From Candidatus Woesebacteria bacterium GW2011_GWB1_39_12 (lineage in GTDB: Bacteria; Patescibacteriota; Microgenomatia; UBA8517), in contig LBWB01000009.1 in NCBI GenBank assembly GCA_000993405.1, positions 77,848-141,847 on the forward strand: a DNA stretch of 64,000 bases, read 5' to 3'. The notes under the pieces are model-generated. The model did no database searches and was not told where the DNA came from. It saw only the letters and a list, made by a program, of their open reading frames with translations. Made by a program: the position numbers and the translations under genes. This document shows, in pieces, positions 12,830-54,568 of the stretch (positions are counted from its first letter, which is position 1; each line of letters starts with the position of its first letter).

Positions 12830-13927
12830 TTGACAACCTTGTTCCATTCTGGTATAAACCTAATCCTAAATAGGATTTTTGACATGAATCAGGCTTATTT
12901 TGAAACTTTGTCCAAGGATTATTTTGGTAACCTTTACCAAAAAGTTTGCAGTGCATTAACTAAAGGTGAAAATGTTTGCATTTCCGTGATACCTGGTTTT
13001 GGAGAAAAAACAATTTTTAATTTCCTGAATTTTAATTTCAAAAACGACAAACTGTTTAACGAAATTTATATTTATGATCCCGAATTGGAAAATGAAAGTA
13101 TTATCGACTATACCAAAAAATTGGAATCCCATAAAACTTCTAAAACTAAACTTCTCATTATCAGATTCTTTGAACAAATTGAAAAAAAGAGAGAGACTTT
13201 GGAAAAACTTGATAACATCAGAAGGAAAAATCCAAAGAGTCTCACCTATTTAGCCGTTTCCAATCAAGAAGCTTTTTTAAATCCCTCCTCGCACCAGGCA
13301 TTAACAACGGTGTTCTTTTCTGAACTAATTTATTTTTCTCCTTTTGATTTTGCTCACACAGAAAAAATGGTTGAGTCGTTGGCGTCTTATTATGGCTGGA
13401 AAATTGAGCCTTCCAGCTACAAAGAAATTTATAATTTGTCTGGTGGAATCCCTAGAATTATAAAATACTTAACTAAAGAGCTTTATGAATCTCGAATCCC
13501 GCTAGCCAATAAAGACAAGTTAACACTAATTCCCCAAATCGGCTTTCAACTTAGACTTATGACAAGAATTTTGATTACCTATGATCAAAAACAAATTCAA
13601 TTGATGGGATTAATCGATGAAAAATACCGATTGAAATCAGGACTTTTAAAATACTTCTTAAAAAATTTCAGAAGCGATATGATTAGCAACCTCTACCCAC
13701 AGCTAGGTGACACCGAAACAAAGATTCTGTCTTTTTTCAGCGAGAAGGAAAGTAAAATTGTAACTTTAGATAATTTAGCCCACTTAATGAAGATGTCTGA
13801 TGATGATTTTTCCTTATGGGCAATTTATAAGTTAATATCGCGCCTTAAAGTGAAAGTAAAAAATAACTTTAATATAAAAAATCTCAAAGGCCGAGGGTAT
13901 ATTCTTAGTAAATCAGTGAATCAATAA
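12830..13927 (+). CDS. hypothetical protein (possible degenerate P-loop GFGEKT)
   Basis: 365-aa ORF; unknown family. Confidence 0.45.
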   Translation: MTTLFHSGINLILNRIFDMNQAYFETLSKDYFGNLYQKVCSALTKGENVCISVIPGFGEKTIFNFLNFNFKNDKLFNEIYIYDPELENESIIDYTKKLESHKTSKTKLLIIRFFEQIEKKRETLEKLDNIRRKNPKSLTYLAVSNQEAFLNPSSHQALTTVFFSELIYFSPFDFAHTEKMVESLASYYGWKIEPSSYKEIYNLSGGIPRIIKYLTKELYESRIPLANKDKLTLIPQIGFQLRLMTRILITYDQKQIQLMGLIDEKYRLKSGLLKYFLKNFRSDMISNLYPQLGDTETKILSFFSEKESKIVTLDNLAHLMKMSDDDFSLWAIYKLISRLKVKVKNNFNIKNLKGRGYILSKSVNQ

Positions 13928-13928
13928 G

Positions 13929-14294
13929 TCATGAGTTAAATTTTGTAGATATTGATGAGAAGATCTTCACAAATTCTTTTGCTTCACGAAGTAATTCAGT
14001 TAATTCGTTTGTAAAATTTGGATTAATTTCAATTAATAATTCTAACCAGTACAAGGTTTCTTTAGACTCTTTCTTGCAAATTCTTATTTTGTGAACAAAA
14101 TCTTTGCCAGACTCCGCTTCACAAGCCTCTCTATAATTCGCACCTATAGAAGTACCCGAACGGATAGTCTGTTTTATTAATATTTCATTTGGAATTGTTT
14201 TGGGAAATCTACTTAATACTTCGATTAAATTTAATGAGAAATCTTTTGTTCTTTTTTGCATCTTCTCTCTAAATTCTGTATTTTTATATACCAT
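13929..14294 (-). CDS. four-helix-bundle protein (TIGR02436-like, formerly called 23S rRNA intervening-sequence protein)
   Basis: 121 aa; characteristic …IRSGTSIGANYREA…KDF…KIRICKKESKETLYWLELL…. Confidence 0.75.
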   Translation of the reverse strand: MVYKNTEFREKMQKRTKDFSLNLIEVLSRFPKTIPNEILIKQTIRSGTSIGANYREACEAESGKDFVHKIRICKKESKETLYWLELLIEINPNFTNELTELLREAKEFVKIFSSISTKFNS

Positions 14295-14306
14295 TGACTT
14301 ATTGAC

Positions 14307-16352
14307 TCACTGACTAACTGATTTACTATCAGATGGTTTTTTCCAAGAAGCCCATTTACAGTCGGGGTAGCGGGAACAGCCGAAGAATTTTCGACCGGTT
14401 TTTGTATTTCTTATAATGACATCCCCTTTAGCGCACTTAGGACATTTCATACCAAGCTTTTCTAAATACTTTTCGGTGTGTTTGCATTCGGGAAAGAGTG
14501 AGCAGGAAATAAATTTGCCAAAACGTCCTGTTCTTATAACCAATTCACCTTGTTTATCTCCAACCCTTCCTTCTTTCTCGCAAGTTGGGCATTTTTTTCC
14601 AAGTTTTTCAGCCTCAATTTTTACTCTTTTAGAATTTTTCTCGACGTCTACCAATTTTTTATCAAAAGGGGCATAAAATACTTTCATCATTTTTTCCCAT
14701 TCCAATTCCCCTTTTGCAATATCGTCCAATTCTTTTTCCATCTCTGCCGTAAATGAATAATCAACAATATCTTTAAAATTCGTGACCAAAAAATCATTTA
14801 CCGCAACGCCGATAGGGGTCGGTATGAACTTTCCCTCCTCTTTTTCGACATAATTTCTTACCTGTATTGTTGTTATTATCGGAGCATAAGTCGAAGGTCT
14901 ACCGATTCCGAGAGCTTCCAAAGTTTTAATCAACGACGCTTCGTTATAACGAGGGGGTGGTTGGGTAAATTTCTGTTCTGATAACACTTTTAACAGATCC
15001 AATAGTTCATCTTTTTCGACCAAAGGCAACTCCGGCTCTTCTTCTTTGGTTAATGGTATTATTTTTCTCCATCCGTCAAACTTCAGAACTTGCCCGGAAG
15101 CTCGTAAAAAATACACCTCCGAGGTGTGAATGTTTTTCACCTCGGAGGTGATACTGGCTTCAATGTCAATTATTGTTTCGTCAAAAACACAAGCTGCCAT
15201 CTGACAGGCAACAAAGCGCTTCCAAATAAGTTGATAAAGCTTCTCGAAATCATTACTAAATTTTCCATCTGTAATTTGTAATTTGTCATTTGTAATTTCA
15301 ACATTAGTCGGCCTGATTGCCTCATGGGCTTCTTGTGCAAGTTTGGAAGTTCTTTTAAAAAACCGTGGTTTCTCGGGCAAATAGTTTGCACCATATGTCT
15401 TGCCTATATATTCCCGGGCTTTTTCAACCGCAGTCGCAGCCAAATTCACCGAATCGGTCCTGTGATAAGTAATTAAGCCCTCTTCATAAAGCCTTTGGGC
15501 AATACTCATTGTTCTTTTGGCCGACCAGCCAAAAAGTCTGGCTCCTGCTTGAGTCATGGTTGATGTTGTAAAAGGGGGATACGGAGACTTAACTACTTCG
15601 CGTTTTCGTACATCGAAAACTTTATAACCGGATTTTTCAAGATCGGAAACTACAGATTTTGCATTTTCTTCATTTTTGATTTCAGCTTTTTTGTCATTTA
15701 TTTTAATCAACTGAACGGTAAATTCGCCATCTTTTACCTCTTGCCTTTTACCTTTTACCTGACAAAAGATTTCCCAATATTCATCCGATTTAAAAGCCTC
15801 TATTTCTCTTTCTCTCTCTACAATCAAGCGTACCGTAACCGATTGTACTCGTCCGGCAGACAAACCTCGACGAATTTTTTTCCATAAAAGCGGCGAAAGC
15901 TTATAACCCACAAGTCTATCCAAAACGCGCCTTGCAATCTGGGCGTCGACTAAATTCTTGTCTATATCCCTAGGATGAGCAATTGCTTCCTCTACCGCCT
16001 CTTTTGTAATCTCATGAAAAACGATCCTTCGGGGGTGATCGCTGATATGTGATCGGTGATCGGTGAGAATTTCTTTAACGTGTTGAGCTATAGCTTCTCC
16101 TTCACGGTCAGGGTCCGTTGCTAAAAATATTTGCTTTGCTTTCTTCCCCTCCTCCTCAATTTTTTTGATCGTATCTTTCTTCTTTTCGACCAATAAATAC
16201 TTTGGTTCAAAATTCTTTTCTATGTCAACCGCCAACTCACTTTTAGGAAGATCCTTAATGTGTCCCGTTGTGGCCTCCACAGAATAATCGTTCCCCAAAA
16301 AACGGGACAAAGTTTTAGCCTTTGTTGGTGATTCGACAATAATTAAATTCAT
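14307..16352 (-). CDS. topA: DNA topoisomerase I
   Basis: 681 aa; TOPRIM N-terminus MNLIIVESPTKAKTL; C-terminal C4 zinc ribbons; contains two in-frame word-repeat insertions. Confidence 0.95.
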   Translation of the reverse strand: MNLIIVESPTKAKTLSRFLGNDYSVEATTGHIKDLPKSELAVDIEKNFEPKYLLVEKKKDTIKKIEEEGKKAKQIFLATDPDREGEAIAQHVKEILTDHRSHISDHPRRIVFHEITKEAVEEAIAHPRDIDKNLVDAQIARRVLDRLVGYKLSPLLWKKIRRGLSAGRVQSVTVRLIVEREREIEAFKSDEYWEIFCQVKGKRQEVKDGEFTVQLIKINDKKAEIKNEENAKSVVSDLEKSGYKVFDVRKREVVKSPYPPFTTSTMTQAGARLFGWSAKRTMSIAQRLYEEGLITYHRTDSVNLAATAVEKAREYIGKTYGANYLPEKPRFFKRTSKLAQEAHEAIRPTNVEITNDKLQITDGKFSNDFEKLYQLIWKRFVACQMAACVFDETIIDIEASITSEVKNIHTSEVYFLRASGQVLKFDGWRKIIPLTKEEEPELPLVEKDELLDLLKVLSEQKFTQPPPRYNEASLIKTLEALGIGRPSTYAPIITTIQVRNYVEKEEGKFIPTPIGVAVNDFLVTNFKDIVDYSFTAEMEKELDDIAKGELEWEKMMKVFYAPFDKKLVDVEKNSKRVKIEAEKLGKKCPTCEKEGRVGDKQGELVIRTGRFGKFISCSLFPECKHTEKYLEKLGMKCPKCAKGDVIIRNTKTGRKFFGCSRYPDCKWASWKKPSDSKSVSQ

Positions 16353-50738: not shown

Positions 50739-52685
50739 ATGACTCACGAATTAAATTCCGGTCAACGAACACGTTGGTGGATACAAAATCCACGTCGGAC
50801 TTCGGCCGAACCTCAAATACAACCCCCCGTTTATGAAAAACCTTTAACTATCAGAGAATGGTTAAATCAAGAACCTGATGGAAAAGTGGCTCAATCTTAT
50901 AAACTTGCAGAAAAAATCCATGAAGGTCAGGTAAGATTCTCCGGCGAACCCTATATATCTCATCCCGAAGCTGTTACTGACATAATAAACACCGAATTCT
51001 ATAATGGCGCTCTCCCTGACGTGGATTTAATCTGTGCCGCTCTTCTTCACGATACTCTTGAGGATACGAATGACGAACAAAAACTTCTTATTTACGAGAA
51101 AATAAAAAATGATTTTGGGGAAGGTGTAGCCTACTTGGTAGAAAGTGTATCTCAATTCAGATCAGATGGAAGTGAACAATCAGACACCGAATATCTTCAA
51201 AAACAGGCTGCTCATGGAATTCCGGATCCCCGCGTATTTGTTCTCAAACTGGCCGATAGACTTCACAATATGCGTACCCTCCAATTCGTACCCGAGGAAA
51301 AACAAATTCCTAAAGCAAAGGAAACCCACATTTATGCAGGTCTGGCCGAAAGACTCGGAATGTGGGCAGTAAAAACAGAACTTGAAGATCTAGCTTTCAA
51401 ATATGAATCACCCGATCTTTATCAATCAATCAAAGAAGAGGTGGATTCCGATCCACGCCTTACTGCTGATTTTATCAGTAAAGTTGAAAACAGCTTAAAT
51501 CAGGTATTAAGAAATAACGAGGGCACGAAAGGTTCAATAAGTGTAAGAAAAAATGGCTTATGGGCATTATATGATAAGAGAATCAGGTTGGCGCAGGCAG
51601 GAAAAGGAAGATTGGGTACTTTTTCGCATATAAATGACTTAGTTAGCTTTCGCATAGTATGTGATACTGTTAATTCGAATAATCTTTTAGAACTGTATAG
51701 CATACTCGGCGCCATCCATAACCATCCAAAATTTAATGAGCCTTTAGATGAAACCAGATTGGACGAATTTTTAGCCAAACCTAAAGGTAACAAATACTCA
51801 GCACTCCAAACAACAATCGACTATCCCGAAGGATCATTTGAAATAGCAATAACAACGAAAGAAAGAGAAGAATTTAACAATTGGGGAATAATGTATTTAT
51901 TAAGGCGTGGTCAATTACAGGAAGCCACTCCCCTATATGAATTGAAAATAGTATTTGACGAAGAAGGTAAGGCTATATTTCTAAATAAAGATGCAACCGG
52001 AGTGGATTTTGTTTACGCAAAAAACCCCTGGCTGGGTGCTCAAGCAATAAGTCTAATCGTAAATGAAGTCCCTACAAAAATCGGACAATTCGTTCCAAAT
52101 GCATCAAGTATTAAAGTAGTAGCATCAGAAGATATACGAAGAGCTCCACCTGCACATTTTCTGGAACATTGTAGCCCTGAAACTCAAAAAATTATTGAAT
52201 CTCAATACGCACTTTTGGGTAGAGATTTTGACGTCGTCAGAGGTAGCGAATTACTTGAACCTATACTTTCCCGTATAGGTCTTCTCGTTGTTTCTGACTG
52301 GCCTCCTCTTGAAAGAATACTCCTTACTAAATTCGACGCACAAGATCTCCATGATTTATACCTCAAAATTGCAAGAACAGGTGAACATCTGTTAAATGAA
52401 ATAAGTCAAGTATTTCAGGAAGAAGGAATCAATAAAGAAGCTCTGAGTTTAACCACGATCAGGCTTCGGGGAAAAAACAGCCCTCACGTCCTAAGAGATG
52501 TGTCAAATCTCATTGACGATCTTAAGGTAGACACAAGACACATCTTGACAAGTAAACCGATAGCCTCAGAAGAAGGAGATTACGAGCTGAGAATTGTAAT
52601 AAATAATCCTTCTCAAGAAATCCTTAACACGCTTAATAAGAAACTAGGTAACGACCAGAGGTTTGATCAGGTAACTATAGTCTGA
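50739..52685 (+). CDS. RelA/SpoT-homologue (RSH) (p)ppGpp synthetase/hydrolase
   Basis: 648 aa; HD motif …ICAALLHDTLEDT…, …ADRLHNMRTL…; synthetase-domain motif …DEFLAKPKGNKYSALQTTI… (cf. DYIAxPKxNGYxSLHT). Confidence 0.8.
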   Translation: MTHELNSGQRTRWWIQNPRRTSAEPQIQPPVYEKPLTIREWLNQEPDGKVAQSYKLAEKIHEGQVRFSGEPYISHPEAVTDIINTEFYNGALPDVDLICAALLHDTLEDTNDEQKLLIYEKIKNDFGEGVAYLVESVSQFRSDGSEQSDTEYLQKQAAHGIPDPRVFVLKLADRLHNMRTLQFVPEEKQIPKAKETHIYAGLAERLGMWAVKTELEDLAFKYESPDLYQSIKEEVDSDPRLTADFISKVENSLNQVLRNNEGTKGSISVRKNGLWALYDKRIRLAQAGKGRLGTFSHINDLVSFRIVCDTVNSNNLLELYSILGAIHNHPKFNEPLDETRLDEFLAKPKGNKYSALQTTIDYPEGSFEIAITTKEREEFNNWGIMYLLRRGQLQEATPLYELKIVFDEEGKAIFLNKDATGVDFVYAKNPWLGAQAISLIVNEVPTKIGQFVPNASSIKVVASEDIRRAPPAHFLEHCSPETQKIIESQYALLGRDFDVVRGSELLEPILSRIGLLVVSDWPPLERILLTKFDAQDLHDLYLKIARTGEHLLNEISQVFQEEGINKEALSLTTIRLRGKNSPHVLRDVSNLIDDLKVDTRHILTSKPIASEEGDYELRIVINNPSQEILNTLNKKLGNDQRFDQVTIV

Positions 52686-53084
52686 AAAAAACCTTCTTGT
52701 AATGCGAGATCTATAAAGACCGTCGCACAATATTTATCTTTTCCCAGTTTGTCCACAAGGTCTTCCACTGTGCCTAGTCTTTAAAACTATCTTTCATACT
52801 AACTCCATCAAAAAACCTCCGTTTTAGAAGGTTTGTAAGTAAAAAAACAAATCACCGATTAGTATAGGAGGTACATGATTATCTGCCTAACACAAATTAA
52901 TTTCATACAGGGTTTACATTTTAACTGTCAATTTCGAAAATTACAAATAAATATCCTATAACGTTGATTTTTGGGGAAAAATTTGATATACTTTGGATTC
53001 CCAAAGTCGCAAGACCTAAGGATTGTATGGGAAACCATACAAGGGTTGGCACCCCTAGCACATTGACATACAGGAGATGATCAA

Positions 53085-53564
53085 ATGACTACAACCGCAA
53101 GGTTAGGTGGACTGCTTTTCGCGGTCCTGTTACTCGCGGCGCTCGCTTTGATGATGAGCCCCGCAAACCCAGCTGCACTGCAGCTGGAAATTAGCATACC
53201 CGGTGGCGCTGCGCCGGAACTGTCTGCTGCAGAGCAGGCGATGAAAAACGCCTTGGAACTTCTCCCAGGCGCCCAAATCAGCGTTCCTGCGCTCTTTTCG
53301 CCAAACGGTGGCTCAGTAACCTTGAACATGAACGGCATGTCGCTTCAGACAAACTGGAGCCCTGTGGACGAAGGGTGTGATTATCACGGGTTCATTAATG
53401 GAAAGAGAATCCCCCTTCTTCACTCGGAGGATCCTTGCGATCCTGCTGATTTCCTCGCGTGGCTGGTTGCCTACGCTTACAAGATCACCGAGGTGATCGG
53501 TAAGGAAAGGGGCGATTCCATAGTTCGTGCAGTTGTCGAGCTGATTCAGCCGTTTGTCCACTAA
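53085..53564 (+). CDS. secreted hypothetical protein encoded by a conspicuously GC-rich, foreign-looking segment
   Basis: 159 aa with signal peptide (…LGGLLFAVLLLAALALMMSPANPAA…). The coding DNA is visibly far more GC-rich than every other gene in the window. An RBS-like aggaga lies upstream. Overlapping minus-strand ORFs are probably GC artefacts. Confidence 0.5.
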   Translation: MTTTARLGGLLFAVLLLAALALMMSPANPAALQLEISIPGGAAPELSAAEQAMKNALELLPGAQISVPALFSPNGGSVTLNMNGMSLQTNWSPVDEGCDYHGFINGKRIPLLHSEDPCDPADFLAWLVAYAYKITEVIGKERGDSIVRAVVELIQPFVH

Positions 53565-53833
53565 GTTCTAAGCTAGGGTGCCAACCCGAAGGGGAGGGCA
53601 AGATTTGTTACGGGTATGGAGTGCGCATGCGCGTACTCAACAAAAATGTTAGCTCAAAGCTAACCAACATAACACATACCCAACACATTTCTTCCCTCCC
53701 CTAGTTCTTCTTTTAATAAATTCAGACAATTTAACTCGTTTATTAAAATAATTAAATTATGTATTTTTATTGCTAACCGAGAGTAAAATATAGGATATTA
53801 TGAATACAGAAATTTCCAGGCGCAATTTTTTAA

Positions 53834-54568
53834 ATGAAAAAATTACCGAACTTCTCCTATGAAAAACGACTTTGGAAAAAAGGCTATAAATTTGTCGCCG
53901 GCTGCGACGAGGTGGGAAGAGGATGTTTTGCAGGACCTGTAGTAGCAGCATGCAACGTATTCATGCCGCAAAATCCAAAAAACAAATTCCAAATTCCAAA
54001 AAATATAAAAATTGATGACTCGAAGAAGTTATCAGAAACCCAAAGAAATATAGCAGCAAAGTGGATTAAAGATAATTGTTTAACCTGGGGAATCGGCATA
54101 GGAAGAGTATCGGAAATAAATAGGTTAGGAATGACAAAAGCAACATCTTCGGCTTTTCGTCGGGCTATTACTAACGCTAATAAAAGGATGGCTTCCCGAG
54201 TAGATTACTTACTCATAGATGCATTTTATATACCATACACAAGGGGCTTACGGATGCCACTAAAAACTGAGAAACTAAAGAATAAAAGAATCAAGGAACT
54301 TAAATATTCAAAATTATCAGGACGACAGTTGGCAATAATAAACGGTGATGAAAAATCTCTTTCAATAGCCGCTGCCTCAATAATTGCCAAGGTTTATAGA
54401 GACAAGTTAATGAAAAACTTAAGTAAAAGACCCAAATTTAAGAAATATGGGTGGGACAAAAACAAAGGTTATGGAACTCGGCAGCATCGAGAAGCAATTT
54501 TAAAATACGGCTCAACAAAATATCACAGAAAAAAATTTGTAGAAACTTATCTTTCCAAAAATAATTAA
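53834..54568 (+). CDS. rnhB: ribonuclease HII
   Basis: 244 aa; …AGCDEVGRGCFAGPVV… catalytic DEVGRG motif; contains an in-frame ccaaattccaaa word repeat. Confidence 0.85.
   Translation: MKKLPNFSYEKRLWKKGYKFVAGCDEVGRGCFAGPVVAACNVFMPQNPKNKFQIPKNIKIDDSKKLSETQRNIAAKWIKDNCLTWGIGIGRVSEINRLGMTKATSSAFRRAITNANKRMASRVDYLLIDAFYIPYTRGLRMPLKTEKLKNKRIKELKYSKLSGRQLAIINGDEKSLSIAAASIIAKVYRDKLMKNLSKRPKFKKYGWDKNKGYGTRQHREAILKYGSTKYHRKKFVETYLSKNN

Follow-up and report, generated by a model that had tools for sequence, protein, structure and literature searches.

On contig LBWB01000009.1 of Candidatus Woesebacteria bacterium GW2011_GWB1_39_12, a 64,000-nt stretch (hereafter the window) carries a sharply GC-rich island that holds a single open reading frame (ORF) bracketed by inverted repeats. 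This raises the question of whether such a segment is a foreign insertion whose ends are still visible, or a unit whose composition and repeats serve the gene itself. A first-pass annotation, made from the sequence alone, took it for a recently acquired cassette. Here, the repeats were found to be two helices, H1 and H2, which recur with compensatory changes at homologous loci, and both the GC content and the inverted repeats of the cassette make better sense as functional elements of an RNA than as traces left by acquisition. By analogy with characterised messages, we lean towards a reading in which the cassette mRNA would be a closed, nuclease-resistant message for an exported protein, protected by H1 and H2.

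The island, its gene and two conserved helices

GC content was profiled across the window in 128 bins of 500 bp, and again in 10-bp steps. The bin 53001-53500 ranked first of the 128 with a GC content of 0.538, and the sliding maximum of 0.552 (at 53101) compares with a window mean of 0.398 (standard deviation 0.042) and a next-best value of 0.51 elsewhere, which bears out the earlier impression, gained by eye, that this is the most GC-rich segment. At 100-bp resolution the island extends over ~53000-53700, between flanking DNA with a GC content of 0.21-0.32. The ORF has GC contents of 0.61, 0.44 and 0.59 at codon positions 1, 2 and 3, respectively, where the third-position value (GC3) of 0.59 compares with 0.29-0.39 in host genes. 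The signals around this ORF suggest that the island is an autonomous single-gene transcription unit of ~715 nt on the + strand, with predicted ends at ~53000 and 53715. Its features are as follows:

52964..52992, + strand: predicted sigma70-like promoter (TTGATT, 17-nt spacer, TATACT, with an extended -10 TG; 9/12 matches in a consensus scan)
53023..53042, + strand: 5' hairpin TTGTATGG-GAAA-CCATACAA, an 8-bp perfect stem with a GNRA-type loop that abuts the 5' arm of H1
53043..53059, + strand: 5' arm of H1, GGGTTGGCACCCCTAGC, holding the family-conserved TGGCA core
53072..53077, + strand: Shine-Dalgarno (SD)-like AGGAGA, in which the end of AGGAG (53076) lies 8 nt from the ATG
53085..53564, + strand: ORF of 159 aa (KKQ98645.1 / KKR00829.1, hypothetical protein, Candidatus Woesebacteria)
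53268..53558, + strand: region of the conserved C-terminal domain (residues 62-158; beta-meander plus three helices)
53572..53587, + strand: 3' arm of H1, GCTAGGGTGCCAACCC, which begins 8 nt past the stop codon and pairs with 53043-53059
53590..53702, + strand: H2, a 113-nt branched 3' domain
53590-53603 / 53690-53702, + strand: outer stem of H2, A-GGGGAGGGC.AAGA / UCUU.CCCUCCCC-U
53612-53618 / 53675-53681, + strand: inner stem of H2
53619-53638 and 53648-53664, + strand: apical hairpins of H2, the first of which contains GCGCATGCGC
53703..53715, + strand: U-rich tail TAGTTCTTCTTTT, directly after H2

The predicted promoter sits directly upstream of the GC island and would place the start of transcription near 53000. 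Several of these elements had already been recorded in the first-pass annotation, including the 480-bp ORF and the AGGAGA as a likely ribosome-binding site (RBS). The 5' hairpin, which is retained in both the minimum free energy (MFE) and centroid structures, is indeed perfect, although it had been placed at about 53015-53035. The downstream repeat was likewise real but displaced: GGGGAGGGCAAG and CTTCCCTCCCC lie at 53591-53602 and 53691-53701 rather than at 53589-53600 and 53700-53712, with the palindrome GCGCATGCGC between them at 53623-53632 as described, and instead of an isolated inverted repeat of ~11 bp they form the outer stem of H2. The strongest repeat of the locus, H1 (53043-53059 / 53572-53587), was missing from that description.

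The ORF is a real protein-coding gene, because HMMER detects homologs with a shared motif and AlphaFold2 returns a confident fold. An exhaustive phmmer search of 1.84 billion representatives gave five relatives besides the query, of 146-221 aa, which match residues ~62-158 with identities of 29-42%: P0004 (E = 1.4e-16, 42% identity over residues 62-158), P0005 (E = 1.3e-12), P0006, P0009 and P0012. The family proteins are mutually ~30% identical; they share the alignment motif FSPxGG...GCxYxGxLNG...DPCDPxDFL...IGE...LIxPF, and residues G76, G97, C98, Y100, C118 and G139 are invariant across the six-member alignment. The AlphaFold2 model, built from six sequences only, has a mean predicted local distance difference test (pLDDT) score of 77.8, with values of 80-97 across residues 60-159, and shows three helices against which a beta-meander with four to five strands packs.

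The protein consists of an N-terminal hydrophobic segment, a disordered or flexible linker and the conserved C-terminal domain of ~100 aa. At the N-terminus, R6 is followed by an 18-residue hydrophobic run (residues ~7-24) and SPANPAA, which by inspection reads as a Sec signal peptide or signal anchor, in line with the signal peptide annotated earlier. All family members have a hydrophobic N-terminus, and lipobox-like motifs are visible by inspection in P0005 (LFAAC) and P0004 (LLLAC), so the product is predicted to be a small exported protein. Two Cys pairs had been reported, but the query has only two cysteines (C98 and C118), hence one possible pair; both are conserved and may form a disulfide.

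Beyond these relatives, a word-indexed search of 5.8 billion proteins with the 159-aa protein returned the query itself only, and word-index searches overall recovered no more than the query and three family members. No profile of Pfam-A, NCBIfam or PHROGs matched the protein, and there was no match in the PDB by sequence profile search (best E 0.29) or Foldseek (best E 0.13), in the viral fold library BFVD (best E 4.6e-3, with low template modelling (TM) scores) or in phage and plasmid sequences by tblastn. A hand-built degenerate pattern gave 16 metagenome matches, all due to chance by hidden Markov model (HMM) screening, and 0 matches in viral contigs, and did not enlarge the family. This protein family is very rare, unnamed and patchily distributed.

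An initial hypothesis had been that the island specifies a ~700-nt structured non-coding RNA, in which the ORF is an accident of GC-richness. The fold of the whole island is stable (z -10.1 on the + strand and -6.0 on the - strand) and has an enclosing stem, the ORF is an orphan in the word-index search, and long antisense ORFs are present, as expected of GC-rich DNA. This hypothesis is effectively refuted by the protein homologs, with their conserved motifs, and by the AlphaFold fold, which was confident from only six sequences; the RBS is also conserved, GC varies with codon position as given above, and the coding sequence (CDS) has no conserved RNA structure. Searches of Rfam 15 gave only four tRNAs in the window at gathering score, only chance-level matches for 52800-53900 at E<=10, and none for the five homologous loci at E<=0.1. 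We therefore give the non-coding reading almost no credence.

H1 joins the 5' and 3' untranslated regions (UTRs) and encloses the RBS and the entire ORF. It comprises 12 perfect bp, or 16 bp with one bulge, and has a mean pair probability of 0.94 in the whole-transcript fold of the window. The 5' arm occupies positions -42 to -26, counted from the ATG, which leaves 12 nt between it and AGGAGA (53072), while the 3' arm ends 2 nt before H2 starts (53590). For the comparison across the family, five homologous loci (L021, L022, L023, L024 and L025) were taken together with the window (WIN); the whole putative transcript of each (-100 to +200) was folded and partition-function pair probabilities were read. 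RNAduplex between the UTRs, which over-extended and gave mixed z-scores, was replaced by these whole-transcript probabilities and a control of 19 genes. In five of the six loci the 5' UTR pairs with the first 7-45 nt past the stop codon, with probabilities of 0.78-1.00:

WIN: 16 bp, pair probability 0.94
L021: 7 bp, pair probability 0.98
L022: 6+6 bp, pair probability 0.78-0.89
L023: 12 bp, pair probability 0.97
L025: 7+9 bp, pair probability 0.97-1.00

Among the 19 control genes, all from the window, the transcript ends paired somewhere in 10, and the 5' UTR paired with the first 60 nt after the stop codon in 1 (5/6 versus 1/19, Fisher p ~6.5e-4 by our own calculation). In the four loci that align in register, the TGGC/GCCA core is invariant and is flanked by compensatory changes, with T-A or C-G at offset -2, G-C or C-G at offset -3, G-C, C-G or A-T at offset -4 and G-C or A-T at offset -5. 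Four pairs have changed on both sides, and the covariation score is 0.28 versus 0.14 in shuffled alignments (27/500 shuffles reach 0.28). These data show that H1 is conserved with covariation.

H2 is present in all six loci. In the window its MFE is -57.1 kcal/mol and its z-score is -10.2 to -10.6 on the sense strand versus about -6.2 on the antisense strand (dinucleotide shuffles), while the homologous domains have z-scores of -7.9 (L021), -8.4 (L022), -8.8 (L023) and -3.9 (L025), and the L024 version is shortened. At each of the five structured loci, the sense strand has the more negative folding z-score. Every H2 starts with A/G-GGG and ends with CCC-U; this A-GGG/CCC-U base is nearly invariant across the 6/6 loci, where a single A-U pair has become G-U. 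Across the first nine pairs, 94% of cells are paired, a percentage that is inflated for H1 and H2 alike because the excerpts were chosen for their folding, so the meaningful control is the shuffling between sequences. By this measure, the covariation score of H2 is 0.57 versus 0.21 +/- 0.07 (0/500 shuffles reach 0.57), 5/9 pairs have changed on both sides, and the score collapses when the partners are slid. H2 is thus also conserved with covariation. Together with the U-rich tail it resembles an oversized intrinsic terminator, and a T-run follows it in four of the six loci (the window, L023, L024 and L025). A simple terminator scan made no call at H2, because its stem and loop are beyond the limits of the scan.

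Three further observations concern these helices. The single control gene with 5' UTR/post-stop pairing (20 pairs, P>0.5) encodes a 121-aa member of the 23S rRNA intervening-sequence (IVS) family PF05635 (E 1.8e-18) at 13929-14294 on the - strand (region 13906-14333), which lies outside any rRNA gene and directly follows another ORF. It is enclosed by a long, near-perfect inverted repeat that touches its start and stop codons (AGTAAATCAGT..CAGTGAGTCAATAAGTCA-ATG ... TGA-CTTATTGATTCACTGATTTACT) and is a second, unrelated stem-enclosed ORF within the window. At L024, the called GTG start of P0004 (L024 1-75) cuts, by inspection, an apparent lipoprotein signal peptide. The upstream sequence KKPVIGLLIVAMLLLAC is in frame, with no canonical start codon after an in-frame TAA, and an extended -10 element TGCTATAAT lies only ~50 nt upstream. 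This 5' end could reflect a mis-called or non-canonical start, or a rearrangement, which may explain the absent 5' arm of H1. Lastly, a sigma54 reading of TGGCAC was discarded, the spacing to the GC element being wrong, by inspection, in both the window and L021.

Coding-region folding and the proposed message

The CDS itself was compared with shuffles that keep both protein and codon usage (60 per CDS). Folding z-scores were -3.9 for WIN, -4.0 for L021 and -5.1 for L023, with 0/60 shuffles as stable in each case, and -1.9 for L025, while six control genes from the window ranged from -1.2 to +0.4. This shows that the CDS has excess folding in WIN, L021 and L023. The family ORFs are GC-richer than their own flanks in 6/6 loci, and GC3 in L021 is 0.36 versus 0.23 in the neighbouring gene. 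Inside the window CDS, at 53169-53187 (the NPAALQLE codons), a 19-nt near-perfect palindrome, CCAGCTGCA-C-TGCAGCTGG, folds into one of its most stable local hairpins.

Because the anatomy of the unit matches that of the Bacillus subtilis hbs mRNA with its 5'/3'-UTR interaction, we infer a closed, nuclease-resistant mRNA. Along such a message the order would be 5' hairpin, 5' arm of H1, RBS and ORF, 3' arm of H1 and H2 as terminator. The H1 clamp, the 5' hairpin and H2 would together keep endo- and exonucleases away from the leader and from both ends of the RNA, and the compact folded CDS may add to this protection. The outcome would be a compact, long-lived message from which an extracellular protein could be made abundantly in an AT-rich bacterium of the Candidate Phyla Radiation (CPR), and selection for stable helices would explain at least part of the high GC content, GC3 included. 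The predicted sigma70-like promoter and the U-rich tail fit the proposed unit. A bolder version, which we consider unlikely, is that the ~700-nt transcript is a selected 'armoured mRNA' module, in which clamp, ornate terminator, hyper-structured CDS and orphan gene are portable between CPR bacteria and other uncultured ones. If so, type I toxins would be the only earlier bacterial case of mRNA end closure that is phylogenetically conserved in a gene family, and the conserved core would point to a dedicated partner for RNA binding or processing, or to a further function of the transcript at the RNA level.

Several observations weigh against the protected-message reading. Promoter, terminator and stabilising role are assigned from sequence and by analogy, and the family comprises only six loci, several of them on very short contigs. 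One of these, L024, keeps the 3' arm but has no H1 5' arm, with a different 5' region at the contig end. The L022 helix is out of register with the TGGCA-core helices, and the helices of L021 (7 bp) and L022 (6+6 bp) would not be significant alone. G-U pairs are rare in the stems, which are almost pure Watson-Crick, and the chemistry of the pairs therefore fits a DNA inverted repeat as well as it does an RNA helix. The L022 CDS shows no excess folding (z = +0.9), and a codon alignment of the CDS revealed no conserved internal structure (structure conservation index (SCI) 0.03), which means either that the extra folding arose separately in each lineage or that the sequences are too diverged to show a common structure. 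Since synonymous shuffles preserve codon composition, they leave the high GC3 unexplained, and a GC-richer donor is a possible source of it. Finally, the predicted accessibility of the RBS varies between loci, from the 92nd percentile down to the 10th, and there is no conserved partner for the SD: its most probable partners differ at each locus and lie nearby or within the CDS, at no locus in the 3' UTR. A 'structured but open RBS' design was dropped because of this inconsistent accessibility and the lack of conserved SD partners. AGGAG-type motifs occur at the equivalent position in L021, L022 and L023.

The pairing state of the SD also bears on a rival explanation in which end-pairing controls translation, as in hok or icaR, so that the full-length message would be silent, or a target of RNase III, until 3' processing or a signal releases it. 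The H1 duplex beside another long duplex is a plausible RNase III substrate, the SD is predicted to be paired in 4/5 loci, and the C-rich 3' arm of H2 (CCCUCCCC) resembles the UCCCCUG anti-SD motif of icaR (PMC3868564). However, H1 excludes both the SD and the start codon, stopping short of AGGAGA as noted above, and the C-rich arm is stably paired inside H2. The SD of the window is mostly unpaired (92nd percentile), and the 3' UTR provides a predicted SD partner at none of the loci. This makes translational control by end-pairing rather improbable, and protection of the message is the reading that we carry forward.

Genomic setting and origin of the cassette

The order RelA/SpoT - ORF - RNase HII was found on 23 contigs from ENA, Logan and JGI samples. 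The nine independent assemblies with DNA are 99.6-100% identical over 52686-53833 and have a single orientation throughout. The ORF and H1 are invariant among them, and the transcript has just two variant positions, 53612 (G>A) and 53666 (A>T), each of which falls in the 3' domain. The first-pass annotation had raised the possibility of a chimeric assembly, but misassembly is excluded because the junctions are identical in these nine assemblies. The abrupt change in composition and the imperfect palindromic element immediately 3' of the ORF could equally suggest a gene cassette of an integron, which would carry an attC site. None of the six 3' regions contains the attC R' core GTTRRRY, R''-like matches in the window are internal only, and there is no integrase or cassette array. 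Chimera and integron cassette together have a probability close to nil. An insertion sequence (IS) or miniature inverted-repeat transposable element (MITE) was also rejected. No second copy of any part of 52960-53760 exists within the 64-kb window, and no transposase or integrase genes are among its ORFs. An 11-bp inverted repeat (52950/53789), considered as a candidate for the cassette ends, is no better than expected by chance, and the RNase HII leader in which its right arm falls is also conserved in L010, a relative without the cassette.

The invariant orientation also speaks to a DNA inversion switch, in which the H1 arms would be sites for a recombinase acting in trans, and the RBS and ORF would flip against a fixed promoter to give a phase-variable surface protein. 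Perfect 12-bp inverted repeats do bracket the RBS and ORF with the promoter outside, the conserved TGGCA/TGCCA core might be what a protein recognises, the stems are of nearly pure Watson-Crick composition, and exported proteins are typical targets of phase variation. Against this, all nine assemblies have the same orientation, although assemblies report only the majority state. No recombinase is encoded in the neighbourhood, and the arms are just 6-7 bp in L021 and L022. The position of the arms, right after the 5' hairpin and right before the terminator-like stem, fits an RNA role, and the sense strand folds consistently better. We regard such a switch as highly improbable.

In the window, the cassette lies among genes for RelA/SpoT, RNase HII, S21, NusG and L11. 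The neighbours at the relatives' loci are unrelated to these; L022, for example, adjoins an ELP3-like radical-SAM/GNAT gene. A RelA-like gene upstream in L021 had hinted at synteny with the window; this was rejected, as the gene gave only a sub-threshold TGS match and ubiquitin-like matches, with no BLASTP similarity. The nearest sampled relatives, L010 (71% identity in RNase HII), L042 (47% in RelA) and L043 (42% in RelA), contain no family member or cassette-like DNA. L043 is nonetheless syntenic, with a CBM96-like gene, RelA, an interval, RNase HII, NusG, L11 and L1. That interval (L043 4545-6433) holds an rve_3 integrase-core fragment and small ORFs, and the arrangement of S21 and RNase HII is altered, RNase HII being encoded on the other strand. 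The integrase fragment and the rearrangement mark the region between RelA and RNase HII as a variable spot and suggest that it may be a hotspot for insertion and rearrangement.

The two edges of the cassette have features of their own. On the right, the RNase HII leader and promoter (TTATTGCT.AAC.G.GAGTAAAATAT..GAT) is ~80% conserved between 53768-53833 and L010 803-853, which is unusually high for AT-rich intergenic DNA and marks the right limit of cassette-specific sequence. On the left, an AT-rich spacer of ~275 bp (52686-52960, GC 0.25-0.32) separates the RelA/SpoT stop codon from the cassette promoter. A total of nine promoter-like sites were found on both strands of 52600-53900, several of them in this spacer, where shuffles lead one to expect 2.7 over the region, and the simple terminator scan called no RelA/SpoT terminator on the + strand of the spacer.

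The cassette is accessory and patchily distributed, and its horizontal movement is plausible. A GC3 of 0.59 is compatible with transfer, but the high GC need not mean a GC-rich donor, because elevated GC, and excess CDS folding in three loci, are traits of the family. With identities of no more than 42-47% (RelA) or 71% (RNase HII), the nearest relatives are too far removed for a gain to be dated. The proposal of a recently acquired cassette is thus upheld in that the unit is autonomous, patchy, absent from three nearest relatives and located in a variable interval, but neither its recency nor a GC-rich foreign source follows, and no mobility genes accompany it. Its composition is indeed foreign-looking, with GC3 far above that of host genes. 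As marks of insertion, the flanking inverted repeats do not qualify: they lie inside the transcript and recur with compensatory changes in unrelated contexts.

These data also bear on a 'moron-like' horizontally acquired cassette, named for phage morons, which Hendrix and colleagues reportedly described as autonomous promoter-gene-terminator units of deviant composition. Here, GC and GC3 would record a GC-richer donor, either a mobile element not yet sampled or a different bacterium, and the repeats would be ordinary UTR hairpins and terminators with no long-range function. This explanation agrees with the protected-message reading on mobility and differs from it on the cause of the GC content and the meaning of the repeats. 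The GC3 contrast with host genes, the cassette's own promoter and terminator, its absence from L010, L042 and L043, the integrase fragment in the L043 interval and the unrelated contexts of family members all speak for it. On the other side stand the compensatory changes in H1 and H2 across loci whose proteins are ~30% identical, the rarity of post-stop pairing among controls (1/19) and the CDS folding beyond codon usage in three loci. With 6/6 members above their flanks in GC, six independent unameliorated transfers would be needed. Mobility genes, a second copy in the window and phage, plasmid or viral matches are also lacking. We judge a moron-like origin to be a doubtful account of the GC content and repeats, and retain the protected message as the preferred one.

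Significance and known counterparts

To our knowledge, intramolecular 5'/3'-UTR pairing in bacteria is known from a few individually dissected genes (hbs, icaR and hok), and the RNA metabolism of CPR bacteria is essentially unstudied. In the present family the same geometry has been kept by compensatory substitutions at about 30% protein identity, with an unusually folded CDS in several members. The conservation evidence is good for so few sequences, and a protective function is what these six loci would suggest. If upheld experimentally, this would provide a natural, phylogenetically supported model of message protection against decay in CPR bacteria, and the compact promoter-clamp-terminator design might serve as a stabilising expression module. 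For annotation, the locus is a caution: where an AT-rich genome shows a sharp island of GC and GC3, selection on RNA structure may lie behind it, besides or instead of foreign origin. The protein itself is a new, confidently modelled and predicted extracellular domain without named relatives, which may bear on the cell-surface biology of episymbionts.

The closest counterpart is hbs of B. subtilis, in which a 14-nt segment of the 5' UTR just past a 5' hairpin pairs with a segment just before the terminator; this pairing restricts RNase Y cleavage of the leader, for which mutations that disrupt the helix and others that compensate provided the proof (PMC5737220, Braun, Durand and Condon 2017). 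Both are small monocistronic mRNAs with a helix of similar length (14 bp in hbs and 16 bp in the cassette) that leaves the SD outside. The hbs-type positions recur here, as the hairpin 53023-53042 abuts 53043-53059, and 53572-53587 ends 2 nt before H2. The two differ in that hbs is one gene for a cytoplasmic nucleoid protein, whereas the cassette helix is conserved with covariation across a divergent family, and in that the cassette has a 113-nt branched terminator domain and a hyper-structured CDS. Function is assigned here by analogy, with the natural compensatory changes in H1 as the sole proxy for in vivo pairing.

In icaR of Staphylococcus aureus, initiation is blocked by a 3' UTR that base-pairs directly with the SD (PMC3868564, Ruiz de los Mozos et al. 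2013). The cassette shares with it the pairing of 5' and 3' UTRs within one mRNA, a C-rich 3' UTR motif and long duplexes that are possible RNase III substrates, but H1 lies upstream of the SD, and no anti-SD partner is conserved, so the SD pairing that defines icaR was not found.

The hok-family mRNAs combine 5'/3' end pairing (the tac/fbi fold-back) with a compact, stable message and covariation across a gene family, work that is said to have come from the Gerdes laboratory in the 1990s. As family-conserved end-pairing is already known for hok, the principle is not new. The hok genes, however, encode a membrane toxin of ~50 aa and have an antisense RNA partner and an overlapping mok frame, whereas the cassette shows no sign of an antisense gene or a second frame, and its 159-aa product is a predicted exported protein that includes a folded domain.

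With phage morons the cassette has in common a single gene with its own promoter and terminator, a composition unlike that of its neighbours and a position between unrelated genes, but it lies outside any prophage, among RelA/SpoT and RNase HII/ribosomal-protein genes, and has no phage matches. The 23S rRNA IVS elements (PF05635) are comparable in that a long stem surrounds their ORF. In these elements the stem forms part of the rRNA, from which RNase III excises it. The cassette differs from them in its protein family, in having its own promoter and terminator and in not being located in an rRNA gene. Overall, the geometry of UTR end-pairing is already known from hbs and icaR, and from hok, while what is new here is the protein family, the conserved TGGCA/TGCCA clamp beside an A-GGG/CCC-U terminator, the hyper-structured CDS and the CPR setting.

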